Of a stretch of DNA of 64,000 bases, positions 56,832 to 61,792 are shown in pieces; position 1 is the stretch's first letter; every line of letters starts with the position of its first letter. The translations under genes and the position numbers were made by a program. This DNA comes from Parachlamydiaceae bacterium (GTDB taxonomy: Bacteria > Chlamydiota > Chlamydiia > Chlamydiales > Parachlamydiaceae). The notes under the pieces were generated by a model. The model saw only the letters and a list, made by a program, of their open reading frames with translations. It searched no databases and was not told the origin of the DNA. Location of the stretch: the NCBI GenBank assembly GCA_013821265.1, contig JACDHD010000005.1, forward strand, positions 236-64,235. Direction: 5' to 3'.

Positions 56832-58466
56832 ATGACTTCTAGAACAGGACAAAAGCCAGGATGCTGCAATCCAATCACCTTATACACAAGACTAGATTAC
56901 AACGCAGCCAAACGCCCTGAAAAATGTTACCAACTATATAAATGGGTCAGCCACGCTGTCAAAGCGGTCATCAATCGCATCCTCATTTTGTGGATGCAAC
57001 GTTACAGCCCAAAAATTGTAGCTGACAACCTTGAGTATCTTACAATCAAACACATTCTGCAGCTAAAACCTTCACAGCTTGCTCATTTACGAAATCTTGA
57101 GGTTGAAAGCAATGAGAAAAGGGGTCGTGCCACACCCGCTGGCGAACAGTTATCTCGCCTATTTGCCACTTGCTTAAAAACAACTAGCTTAAATCGAGTT
57201 GAAGTACATCCAGCAACAGCACAATTTCTTTCTCATCTTTCTTATTCACAACTCGATTTTCTACGCCGTCAACAATCTCTCGGAGGAGAAGTTCAGGATA
57301 ACGCGCCAATCTACCACCAAACTCTCACTGAATCCTTTCTTTTTAGAGATGAGCTGACTTCTGATAGATTTACTACGCAGAAAGAAAAATGGGTGAAATA
57401 CGCTCCGGAATTCTTCAATGCTTTAAGCGCACAAGCTATAAGAAGACACCCTACCTTCTTAGTATCTCTTTTTGATGACCTCTTAAAGCAAGAGTATTCC
57501 AAACAATTACAAGATATACAGTGTACTACAGTCTATCGACTACGAGAAGTGCCCAATTCGGAAAAGCAAAACATTCCAAAACTAGTAAGTACTTTTTTAG
57601 GAAATTTGCAAGCGGAACACAAAAATAACTTATCTTTAGAGAATTTAACGACCTTGCGTGCATCTGTAGGCACCGTCAAATTGTTACAAATGGTCCCTGC
57701 ACAAAGAAATGAGTTTAACGCCCGCTACATAGACAAAATTTTCTCTCTTATTTGGGAAGAAGGTTCGAATTCTGCAATTGATTTTGGCAACATGCCAGCG
57801 ACCGAAATCTCAGCCCTCTTTTCCCGTTTAGTTACTATTTTTCCAGAAGTTTGGGATAAAGAATCGAAGGAACGCTTTACGAAATATGACTATAAGCCTA
57901 ATTTTTTTAAGAAATTCGTCAATGGTGTCTTTAATCATTTTCAAGAAAACAAGTGGGAACTCGCAGACTTAGCTGACGTACAGCTGCAGAGAGCAATCCT
58001 TTCACGGTTCACAGATAAGGAGTTCAAGAAAAGGGTGATTCCATCACATCTAATTCTTGAAATTCCACGCGAGTTTGATCAGATCCAATACATTTATGGT
58101 TTATCACTAAACAAGGTAAAAGAAATTTTTGCGCTTCCTGACACTGAGTACAACAACAAACTTGTCGCGGCCTGTTGGCATGAGCATAAGAGTCGTATTT
58201 CTCTTGAAGTTTTTCAAGCAATGTCGCCAGATCGTCAAAAAATCTATGGACAAAGACTTAACGGTACGCCCCTTTTGGAGAAAGTGCTGAATTTGCCCTT
58301 AAATAACGCCGAGAATAGACGTTTAATTGACTTATGTACAAATAATCCCTGGTCGGGTGTTTATGTAAGAGAAGCATTCTCACAACGCCGCGAAGAACTA
58401 GCAACAATACTAGTTACTGATAATGCCTTATACAGAAAGCTACAAGCAATTTTGAAACAGACATAA
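56832..58466 (+). CDS. Member 1 of a tandem triplicated ~545-aa protein family (unknown function)
   Basis: 544 aa. N-terminus MTSRTGQKPGCCNPITLYTRLDYNAAKRPEKCYQLYKWVSHAVKAVINRILILWMQRY is shared with the next two ORFs. C-terminal ALP..TE.N..L..AC and LP.NN.ENRRLID.C motifs. Confidence 0.75.
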   Translation: MTSRTGQKPGCCNPITLYTRLDYNAAKRPEKCYQLYKWVSHAVKAVINRILILWMQRYSPKIVADNLEYLTIKHILQLKPSQLAHLRNLEVESNEKRGRATPAGEQLSRLFATCLKTTSLNRVEVHPATAQFLSHLSYSQLDFLRRQQSLGGEVQDNAPIYHQTLTESFLFRDELTSDRFTTQKEKWVKYAPEFFNALSAQAIRRHPTFLVSLFDDLLKQEYSKQLQDIQCTTVYRLREVPNSEKQNIPKLVSTFLGNLQAEHKNNLSLENLTTLRASVGTVKLLQMVPAQRNEFNARYIDKIFSLIWEEGSNSAIDFGNMPATEISALFSRLVTIFPEVWDKESKERFTKYDYKPNFFKKFVNGVFNHFQENKWELADLADVQLQRAILSRFTDKEFKKRVIPSHLILEIPREFDQIQYIYGLSLNKVKEIFALPDTEYNNKLVAACWHEHKSRISLEVFQAMSPDRQKIYGQRLNGTPLLEKVLNLPLNNAENRRLIDLCTNNPWSGVYVREAFSQRREELATILVTDNALYRKLQAILKQT

Positions 58467-58498
58467 TCGCCCCTTTAACTAATATTTAGGAATGTTTC

Positions 58499-60133: not shown

Positions 60134-60148
60134 ATAAAGGATATTATT

Positions 60149-61792
60149 ATGACTTCTAGAACAGGACAAAGATCAAGTTGCTGTAATCTTTTTGCCTTGC
60201 ACAATGCCGTTGGATATGATGCTGTGGCCAATCGCCCCAAAAGATGCTACCAGCTGCATAAGTGGACGTGTCATGCAGTAAGATACATGATCGATCGCAT
60301 CGTCGTCTTTTGCATGCAGCGCTGCAGCGCCAAAACCGTAGCTGACAACCTTGCTTGCCTTACACCAAAAAACATTCAGTGGCTAAAACCTTCGCAACTT
60401 TCTCATCTGCGAACTCTTGAGGTTGAAACCAAAGAAAAAGAAGTTTTAGAAACAGCTGCAGGAAAAGAATTAACTCGTCTATATGAAGCTTGCTTACTGA
60501 AAGTTGGTGTGTCTGACCCATTTCAAATGCATCCTGGAACAGAACGTTTTCTCTCTGCTCTTTCCCTTACACAACTCGCTTTCTTATGGAAATCTTATTA
60601 TGATAGCCAGAAATATGAGATTTTCGAACCACTGTCAGAGGCATTTGTTTCTAGAGCTGCTTCCACAGATATTCTTGCACGTTCCGAAGAACGTGATGAA
60701 TGGATAAAGTATGCCTCTAATCTCTTGCCGTATTGCAATAAAAATACTGTAGTAAAACACTCAGATTTCCTTCTTTCGCTTTTAGAGTCGCTGTTGACTA
60801 GAGAGTCCTCTGAGCTATTTGAGGGTGTACAGCGCACAATGGTCGGCCGCTTAGGATTGCATTTGCCAGATTCTGAAAAGCCAAAGATCTCACAAGTTGT
60901 GCAAGGAGTATTAGGTGGCCTACAATCCGAACGTAAAATTAACCTAAGTAAAGACAATCTAATTGCCCTACACCAAGCAGTTGGTCAAATTGGACTTTTG
61001 GAAATGATTCCAGAAAAGATCGATGAATTAAATCGGAGATACGTACATAGCATTTATGATATCGTTAATAGCTTTCATCTTGCTCCTGAAGATTTTGCCC
61101 AAATGGAGCCTAAAAGGCTCTCCAATCTCTTTGCACGTCTGATAAATGCTTTCACAAAGCAATGGGAATCTGAAAATCTTTACTCTCGCTCGTATGCCAA
61201 ACGTCCTCAGTTATTTGGCAAGGTTGTATCCGGAGTTGTTGCAAAGTTTAAAGCCAATCAATGCCAAATAGAGGATTTTACAGATACTCGCCTAAAGACT
61301 GCATTACTTGCGCAACTAGATTTTCGAGATGTAAGAGGGCTATCTATCCCCAACCATCTCCTCCGAGCACTAAATTATGATGTTCATGATGCATACATCC
61401 AACAACTATCCCCAGAAAGGCTCACAGCCATTTTTGCTCTTCCAGAAACTGAAGAGAACTACCAGTTAGTGAGCGCATGTTTCGGCGCACTTCGTTTCAA
61501 GGATAAAGGAATGCTCCCTGCCTATTTCATGGCAATGCCTCCCAAGCATCAAGCACAGTACTTATTGTTAGCAGGGACGTCGCTTTTAAAAGACATTTTT
61601 GCTTTACCGCTAGATAAGCCCGAGAATCGAACCTTAATTGACAAGGCTTTAGCTCTTCCACAAATAACTACGGGTATGGGAAATTATATTGTTAGAAACG
61701 CGTTTAGTGCCCGTGCTCGAGACTTGACGGCATTAGAAAAAATCGATCCTACTCTTGCCAAAAAGATAACTGACACCATGTGGAGGACCTAA
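60149..61792 (+). CDS. Member 3 of the tandem triplicated family (most divergent)
   Basis: 547 aa. The first 22 nt are identical to member 1. SSCCNLFALH, KRCYQLHKW and ALPLDKPENRTLID motifs are retained. Confidence 0.75.
   Translation: MTSRTGQRSSCCNLFALHNAVGYDAVANRPKRCYQLHKWTCHAVRYMIDRIVVFCMQRCSAKTVADNLACLTPKNIQWLKPSQLSHLRTLEVETKEKEVLETAAGKELTRLYEACLLKVGVSDPFQMHPGTERFLSALSLTQLAFLWKSYYDSQKYEIFEPLSEAFVSRAASTDILARSEERDEWIKYASNLLPYCNKNTVVKHSDFLLSLLESLLTRESSELFEGVQRTMVGRLGLHLPDSEKPKISQVVQGVLGGLQSERKINLSKDNLIALHQAVGQIGLLEMIPEKIDELNRRYVHSIYDIVNSFHLAPEDFAQMEPKRLSNLFARLINAFTKQWESENLYSRSYAKRPQLFGKVVSGVVAKFKANQCQIEDFTDTRLKTALLAQLDFRDVRGLSIPNHLLRALNYDVHDAYIQQLSPERLTAIFALPETEENYQLVSACFGALRFKDKGMLPAYFMAMPPKHQAQYLLLAGTSLLKDIFALPLDKPENRTLIDKALALPQITTGMGNYIVRNAFSARARDLTALEKIDPTLAKKITDTMWRT

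Follow-up and report, generated by a model that had tools for sequence, protein, structure and literature searches.

A tandem gene triplet in a Parachlamydiaceae genome belongs to an expanded family with an orphan N-terminal domain and carries a 5′ gene-conversion tract

Among obligate intracellular bacteria, environmental chlamydiae serve as the reference case for expanded gene families, and the expansions documented so far use recognisable eukaryotic-like domains. The NEX1, NEX2, PEX1 and PEX2 families of Parachlamydiaceae combine a conserved N-terminal domain with variable repeats, occur in tandem arrays and possess functional type III secretion (T3S) signals (PMC4209131). Their ratios of nonsynonymous to synonymous substitution rates (dN/dS) range from 0.29 to 0.63, and no convincing recombination was found in them (Domman et al. 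2014, PMC4209131). The locus described here is a tandem triplet of genes (c1, c2 and c3, in this order) in a 64,000-nt stretch of a Parachlamydiaceae metagenome-assembled genome (MAG; GCA_013821265.1, contig JACDHD010000005.1, positions 236 to 64,235 of the forward strand), referred to below as the window. The triplet belongs to a previously undescribed family and is another case of the gene-family expansion known from Parachlamydiaceae. It is the youngest tandem cluster of a multigene family that is restricted to Parachlamydiaceae and has no known relatives. The evolutionary behaviour matches that of the documented expansions, with birth-and-death in tandem, purifying selection and conservation of an N-terminal unit, whereas the domain employed is one without relatives in Pfam, the PDB or 1.8 billion representative proteins.

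The triplet family resembles NEX and PEX in belonging to the same bacterial family, in having expanded within its lineage, in its tandem arrays with fragments or pseudogenes, in the lack of homologues outside the lineage, and in joining a conserved N-terminal domain to a variable helical or repeat C-terminus at dN/dS well below 1. However, it shares no sequence homology with them, lacks F-box, BTB, RING/U-box, LRR and TPR domains, and is smaller, with at least 12 copies compared with 27 to more than 100. Its N-terminal domain has no known relative, and a Foldseek search with this domain gave no Skp2- or BTB-like match. Furthermore, it displays a clear 5′ gene-conversion tract, and its T3S signals are putative, whereas those of NEX and PEX are experimentally functional.

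Effectors of Salmonella pathogenicity island 2, including SspH2, SseI, SifA and others, share an N-terminal translocation domain with the motif WEK(I/M)xxFF. In SspH2/SseI and in GobX, an N-terminal Cys undergoes S-palmitoylation by the host (PMC4951486). As in the Salmonella STE-type proteins, differing bodies in the triplet family are headed by a common N-terminal domain of ~140 aa with a conserved N-proximal cysteine, which in SspH2/SseI serves to anchor the protein on host membranes; this offers a functional analogy for how the module might work. However, WEK(I/M)xxFF is absent from 21 family members (regular-expression search), no sequence or structural similarity exists, and the bodies are homologous to one another rather than unrelated enzymes. 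The first 100 residues of the Chlamydia trachomatis T3S effector CteG (CT105) direct it to the Golgi (PMC6468002), and this N-terminal targeting region of ~100 residues has no recognisable motifs; for the N-terminal domain of the triplet family, such a role is proposed only. Unlike the triplet family, CteG is a single-copy protein, and no homology between the two was detected, the exhaustive search described below having returned no Chlamydiaceae proteins. Inc proteins, which are T3S-dependent host-interface proteins, are likewise lineage-specific and clustered, but c1-c3 lack their bilobed hydrophobic domain, the maximum 19-residue Kyte-Doolittle score being 1.01-1.15, compared with 2.15 in a neighbouring 121-aa open reading frame (ORF).

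The three genes lie head to tail on the forward strand, encode 544, 544 and 547 aa and are separated by spacers of 32 and 15 nt (Table 1), exactly as stated in a preceding sequence-only reading of the window. Their products align end to end, with 53% identity for c1-c2 (BLASTP E = 0) and 39% for c1-c3 (E = 1e-108), bearing out the colinearity noted there. At the nucleotide level, c1 and c2 are ~90% identical over codons 1-60 (the first 180 nt) and 50-70% identical elsewhere in a sliding window, so that the earlier description of the first ~200 nt as nearly identical was slightly overstated; the first 22 nt of c3 are indeed exactly those of c1. Identity is thus not uniform along the genes, and its unevenness exceeds chance: the maximal c1/c2 segment scores 109, whereas shuffling gave at most 43 (p ≤ 5e-4), and a breakpoint is placed at alignment nt ~177 (permutation p 5e-4). 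Together with two orphan genes directly upstream, the triplet forms a five-gene block (183, 282, 544, 544 and 547 aa) that also occurs on contig JAITZQ010470785.1 of the independent NCBI assembly GCA_020064125.1, and the Logan assembly of SRR11719877 carries c3 and part of c2; therefore, the triplication is not an assembly artefact.

All motifs quoted in the sequence-only reading could be located, with the two C-terminal ones altered in individual copies. MT(S/T)RT(G/E)Q(K/R)..CCN, KRPEKCYQL(Y/H)KW, AVINRILILWMQRY and LKPSQL..L..LEV are found in the triplet. ALP.TE.N..L..AC begins at residue 434 of c1 and 430 of c3, and c2 has ALPVTEDNAKLIEAC at 434, while ALP(L/I)(N/D)(N/K)PENR.LID begins at residue 486 of c2 and 485 of c3, and c1 has NLPLNNAENRRLID at 487. 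Both C-terminal motifs of c1 fall within a helical region modelled at high confidence (residues ~270-544; predicted local distance difference test, pLDDT, 80-93), and an internal repeat linking them is weak, with marginal statistical support.

A full family member consists of a short, polar and disordered N-terminus (pLDDT <50 for residues 1-7 or 1-17 in AlphaFold2 models), which in the clade of this genome ends in a Cys-Cys pair, an N-terminal domain of ~140 residues (the N-module) and a collinear, fast-diverging, helical solenoid-like body. Modelled with 16 diverse sequences, the N-module is a compact all-helical domain with a pLDDT of 86.2 and a predicted template modelling score of 0.72. 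Since this module is confidently folded, the conserved ~70 N-terminal residues are part of a ~140-residue domain. The full-length model is all-helical, with a mean pLDDT of 73.7 and values of 80-93 in the C-terminal half. The pattern common to the family is (CC)..MYDPVANRP..KW.H..LINRI..LW..Y(S/G)..V...F..L(T/S).N.R.L...QLS.LK.L ... ALS..QL.FL, and the most hydrophobic stretch is the N-module's central helix (residues ~35-56), which is modelled as the core of the globular domain.

The N-domain is novel, lacking any neighbour in sequence or structure. A Foldseek search with the N-module gave no neighbour in the PDB (best E 1.2, template modelling score 0.2) and nothing in BFVD, and the full-length model retrieved only generic HEAT/ARM solenoids (E ≥ 2e-3, template modelling score ~0.2). 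PDB sequence searches with c1-c3 gave no match, and PDB profile searches with the N-module and other family alignments gave nothing meaningful. Neither c1-c3 (Pfam E ≤ 1) nor their neighbours matched Pfam or NCBIfam families, and Pfam scans of 10 relatives (E ≤ 0.01) and 16 N-modules (E ≤ 10) revealed no signal recurring across members; the absence of a known domain had also been remarked on from the sequence alone. In addition, c1-c3 lack transmembrane segments (their 19-residue Kyte-Doolittle maxima being 1.0-1.15) and signal peptides. The lipobox L-[AS]-[GA]-C is absent from residues 1-40 of every member, and no hydrophobic h-region precedes the Cys residues. An F-box was considered for the LPxLTxxxLxxLKPSQLxxL stretch and rejected, as no member gave an F-box signal at E ≤ 10 and no structural match was found. 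N-myristoylation was rejected for want of Gly2, and CaaX prenylation and an identity as bacterial lipoproteins were rejected as well.

An exhaustive profile search over 1.84 billion representative proteins yielded 22 matches, most of which share just the first ~150 residues with c1-c3; two of them, P0011 (an ALTTAQ-like repeat protein) and P0013 (low-complexity repeats), were judged spurious. Six distant matches are paralogues from the same MAG (H0X51_01820, 03445, 03455, 03465, 06825 and 06860). With the HMM census, the family in this MAG numbers at least 12 copies, two fragments included; these are spread over four or more loci and mostly form tandem arrays. This count is a lower bound, because the library merges proteins of more than 50% identity into one representative. 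In the truncated paralogue P0004, of the c1-c3 type, the first ~20 residues (MTSKMEKRQESCDP...) are fused directly with body positions 201-391, and neither N-module nor C-terminal domain is present, which is consistent with birth-and-death turnover. Profile-profile comparison with hhalign showed that the paralogue groups are collinear well past the module (probability 99.3-99.9, alignments reaching columns 307-436), indicating one fast-diverging family rather than domain shuffling. At the second tandem array (L001), an IS200-type Y1 transposase flanks the genes, and a gene for a secreted-looking 235-aa alpha/beta-hydrolase (GxSxG motif HSMGG), unrelated to the family, interrupts them; these two features lie at 6484-7020 and 9181-9888.

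The remaining members come from Logan assemblies of Sequence Read Archive (SRA) data. Contig L007 holds another tandem pair, and its glycyl-tRNA synthetase is 80% identical to that of Ca. Protochlamydia phocaeensis and 76-79% identical to those of Parachlamydiaceae MAGs. One L007 protein, P0022 (771 aa, 1536-3851), contains module positions ~50-134 in three tandem repeats (independent E-values 2e-48, 2e-8 and 1.5e-5), indicating that the second half of the N-module is able to act as a repeat unit. Searches of GTDB representative genomes (with the profile and a MYDPVANRP DNA pattern) and of JGI metagenomes found nothing further beyond one 3.6-kb contig, JACCWI010000002.1 (3593 bp; L003/L005), which is deposited in a 'Tatlockia sp.' (Legionellales) MAG. 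It carries two family members, one of them identical to H0X51_01820 of the Parachlamydiaceae MAG, and was most likely mis-binned from the same metagenome. No isolate chlamydial genome contains a family member at HMMER sensitivity, and members beyond this MAG derive solely from uncultured Parachlamydiaceae, in agreement with the lineage-specific expanded family proposed from the sequence alone. Neighbour-joining of the modules places the MAG paralogues in one clade with tandem neighbours as sisters, which points to local duplication. Within the triplet, c3 takes the outgroup position; c3 separated first, and c1/c2 duplicated afterwards.

Two processes overlap at the N-terminus of the triplet, namely family-wide purifying selection and gene conversion between c1 and c2. 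Gene conversion has recently homogenised c1 and c2 from -28 to ~+175 nt. Synonymous divergence (dS) between them is 0.31 in codons 1-59 compared with 1.2-2.2 downstream (1.6 over codons 111-560), and their similarity extends 28 nt upstream through the ribosome-binding site (RBS), with 23 of the 28 bases identical. At informative sites, c1 and c2 agree in 48 of 63 cases within nt 1-180; for the body the figure is 305 of 630 (Fisher p 3e-5). The sequence-only reading had offered gene conversion as one explanation of the preserved 5′ ends, and the fall in dS (0.31 vs 1.6) and the extension of the tract into the 5′ untranslated region (UTR) and RBS bear this out. Downstream, in nt 181-330, 11 of 56 informative sites unite c1 and c2, 24 unite c1 and c3, and 21 unite c2 and c3 (p 3e-5 vs the body), and dS is 0.72 for c1-c3 and 0.55 for c2-c3, compared with >2 in the body, which suggests older or shorter exchanges involving c3. 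No 5′ homogenisation was seen in the other tandem clusters, save for a mild signal in the L003 pair.

All parts of the proteins are under purifying selection, and across the family the N-domain more strongly so than the bodies. Among c1-c3, dN is 0.25-0.29 in codons 1-110 compared with 0.59-0.72 downstream, and in the other tandem clusters module dN is 0.18-0.6 compared with 0.6-1.0 in the bodies, with saturated dS. The domain has stayed conserved even between paralogues with saturated synonymous sites, and is therefore constrained at the protein level. The earlier emphasis on a strongly conserved N-terminus of ~70 residues therefore stands as to conservation, but its extent, and the idea of a signal alone, do not: the conserved region is a folded domain of ~140 aa under purifying selection. 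This descriptive account of the family, covering architecture, expansion and evolution, is held with high confidence.

The family members are, on balance, probably type III-secreted host-interaction effectors with a shared targeting or adaptor domain. As they carry neither a Sec signal nor a transmembrane segment, T3S would be the most plausible chlamydial export route, if they are exported. The effector reading is favoured by the polar disordered N-terminus, which in c1-c3 has 0-1 acidic residue among its first 15 positions, by the restriction of the family to one lineage, by the location of the triplet in a low-G+C island beside an Inc-like gene, and by the close resemblance of its evolution to that of the NEX/PEX families. 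In this reading, secretion would be signalled by the extreme N-terminus, and the N-proximal Cys-Cys pair would be S-acylated by host enzymes and thereby anchor the protein on a host or inclusion membrane. The shared N-domain would dock each paralogue to a partner or compartment common to all of them, and the variable body would offer paralogue-specific binding surfaces. The Cys-Cys pair (Cys11-Cys12 in the triplet) occurs at residues 4-12 in 10 of 10 module-bearing paralogues of the MAG and also in P0016, with varying surrounding residues. Its proposed role as a host S-acylation site anchoring the proteins to a membrane draws on this conservation and on the analogy above, and is put forward tentatively, as a doubtful possibility. 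In a wider scheme, which is possible but falls short of probable, the N-module would represent a new fold and, with the host-S-acylated Cys-Cys pair, a common translocation and host-membrane targeting unit of a hitherto unrecognised Parachlamydiaceae-subgroup effector superfamily, gene conversion keeping the 5′ 'address label' uniform among young tandem copies while the cargo diverges.

Several observations weigh against these proposals. The sister clade has Phe-Phe, Leu-Phe or Leu-Ser at the Cys-Cys position; such hydrophobic substitutes could mean that these residues pack into the domain, which is equally compatible with the data. Residues 11-20 are modelled with a pLDDT of 84 and may thus be structured rather than form a free lipidation tail. 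Library scans detected no eukaryotic-like domain in the family, no T3S chaperone gene or T3S system gene adjoins the triplet, and the family is known from MAGs and short SRA contigs alone.

The foremost alternative is that the proteins remain in the bacterial cytoplasm as scaffolds, regulators or developmental-cycle factors, with the N-domain binding a common bacterial partner. The absence of an export signal of recognisable kind and of secretion-system genes next to the triplet would fit such a role, as would the presence of a folded helical domain at the N-terminus in place of a disordered region for chaperone binding. However, it is rare for obligate intracellular chlamydiae to retain 12 or more rapidly diverging paralogues for internal roles, and the documented expansions in this bacterial family are effector pools (PMC4209131). 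That no isolate chlamydial genome holds a member at HMMER sensitivity speaks against a core role in the cell, and the genes lie in a low-G+C island beside an Inc-like gene. A cytoplasmic function is considered unlikely.

Diversifying (arms-race) selection as the driver of body divergence, which had been put forward from the sequence alone, is not supported. The high dN of the bodies (0.4-0.7), which diverge far faster than the N-module, would agree with it, and the copy number and fragments suggest birth-and-death turnover. However, dN/dS among c1-c3 is 0.04-0.6 in each pair and region with all methods applied (NG86, LWL85 and maximum likelihood), and the analogous NEX/PEX families are also under purifying selection. 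As dS in the bodies is saturated (1.1 to >2), episodic or site-specific positive selection could be hidden from these pairwise values. Arms-race selection is judged improbable. Another view, in which the conserved N-terminus results solely from gene conversion or recent duplication without any special functional constraint, can point to the collapse of c1/c2 dS at the 5′ end and to a tract that takes in non-coding upstream bases. It is largely refuted and most improbable, since at saturated dS the module is still better conserved than any other part, both in paralogues and in members from other organisms, its dN stays below that of the bodies, and c3 retains the module at a dS of 1.2-2.0 to the other copies in codons 1-59.

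A polymorphic-toxin-like system, with a conserved N-terminal trafficking domain, variable C-terminal toxins and immunity genes, matches the conserved N-terminus, variable C-terminus and tandem arrays, but is disfavoured and scarcely credible, as the bodies are collinear homologues with helical solenoids rather than swapped cassettes, no toxin or immunity family was matched in Pfam, and the 32- and 15-nt gaps contain no small ORFs. Equally remote is an identity as Inc or other integral membrane proteins: the hydrophobic central helix of the N-module and the nearby Inc-like gene invite this view, but the low hydropathy maxima, the missing bilobed hydrophobic domain of 40-60 aa and the modelling of that helix as the core of a globular domain speak against it.

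The window holds a gene for a Protochlamydia-type Pom outer-membrane protein, gyrA/gyrB and a nuo operon that ends at 53.3 kb; the Pom protein and the NCBI naming of c1 and c2 as hypothetical proteins of a Parachlamydiaceae MAG agree with the chlamydial lineage supposed in the sequence-only reading. The triplet lies within a low-G+C island (0.36-0.41 vs ~0.45 in the flanks) made up of orphan genes: the 121-aa Inc-like gene, located 2.3 kb upstream of the triplet, the 183-aa and 282-aa genes, and the triplet itself. The 183-aa and 282-aa genes, preceded by a sigma-70-like site at 55244-55272, are possibly co-transcribed. Both products begin with M-x-P-x-NR, and the 282-aa protein contains a Pro/Ala/Thr-rich region and a C-terminal hydrophobic segment right after 'SCC'. 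These two genes have no counterpart beside the other family loci, and a neighbourhood comparison of the loci found no recurrent partner gene or chaperone. On the 3′ side, the triplet is followed by a convergent gene for a MauG/MbnH-like di-haem peroxidase (62045-63121, reverse strand) and then by an Fe/Mn superoxide dismutase gene (63198-63875), whose product has a hydrophobic N-terminus resembling a signal peptide.

A dispersed palindromic element resembling a miniature inverted-repeat transposable element or a repetitive extragenic palindrome occurs at 32743-32883, 36207-36328 and 61846-61949, the last copy lying just 3′ of the c3 stop codon in the convergent spacer. Its arms consist of 2-4 tandem CTCTGCGT octamers, inverted and ~60-75 nt apart; a 17-mer was matched 12 times against 0 expected, and the inner parts of the copies at 36 kb and 61 kb align. 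Elsewhere in the window, a 705-aa Sel1-repeat protein is encoded at 87-2204 (reverse strand). A low-G+C stretch (0.35-0.39) at 17944-21551 encodes a YcaO cyclodehydratase (731 aa, with an N-terminal winged helix-turn-helix) directly followed by a ThcOx/nitroreductase-type dehydrogenase (467 aa), an enzyme pair of the type that forms azolines/azoles in ribosomally synthesized and post-translationally modified peptides. A 117-aa ORF (17604-17957) lies immediately upstream of this pair, and no obvious Cys/Ser/Thr-rich precursor peptide was found within 1.6 kb upstream.

Table 1. Coordinates of the triplet, its internal features, neighbouring orphan genes and further family loci (positions refer to the window unless a contig is named; HMM, hidden Markov model)
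Feature	Position	Strand	Basis or remark
121-aa orphan, Inc-like	54173-54538	-	Bilobed hydrophobic domain at residues ~34-75; G+C 0.36
Two orphan genes (183 and 282 aa)	55305-56757	+	Short spacers; same strand as triplet
Conversion tract, c1 arm	56804-57005	+	28 nt of 5′ UTR with RBS and ~174 nt coding
c1	56832-58466	+	H0X51_01765; ORF list, exact match to P0001
N-module of c1 (residues 1-149)	56832-57278	+	Family-defining helical module; HMM envelope
Cys11-Cys12 codons	c1 56862-56867; c2 58529-58534; c3 60179-60184	+	Alignments
C-terminal motifs of c1	58131-58337	+	ALPDTEYNNKLVAAC (residues 434-448); NLPLNNAENRRLIDLC (487-502)
Conversion tract, c2 arm	58471-58672	+	Begins 4 nt past the c1 stop codon
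c2	58499-60133	+	H0X51_01770; ORF list
N-module equivalents	c2 58499-58939; c3 60149-60601	+	HMM envelope
c3 (P0003)	60149-61792	+	Outgroup of triplet; ORF list
c3 mosaic segment (nt ~181-330)	60329-60478	+	Corresponds to ~c1 57009-57158 and ~c2 58676-58819
Second tandem array	L001		Four genes (441, 395, 397 and 363 aa) and a 227-aa fragment; HMM census
Tandem pair	L003		374 and 571 aa; HMM census
Single gene	L002		560 aa; HMM census
P0004, truncated c1-c3-type paralogue	L002 7516-8187	-	223 aa; HMM census

What sets the triplet family apart is its orphan N-domain, together with the conserved Cys-Cys pair and a 5′ gene-conversion tract that can be demonstrated. The scope of the finding is limited to one MAG lineage, and its functional steps are inferential. 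Another expanded orphan family in an environmental chlamydia would hardly surprise a specialist, but the new domain and the clean contrast between conversion and selection are useful and testable all the same. If the N-module is indeed a targeting or adaptor domain, it would provide a new handle for effector prediction in uncultured chlamydiae, and the triplet would lend itself, as a compact system, to work on how an address label is maintained by gene conversion amid protein divergence.

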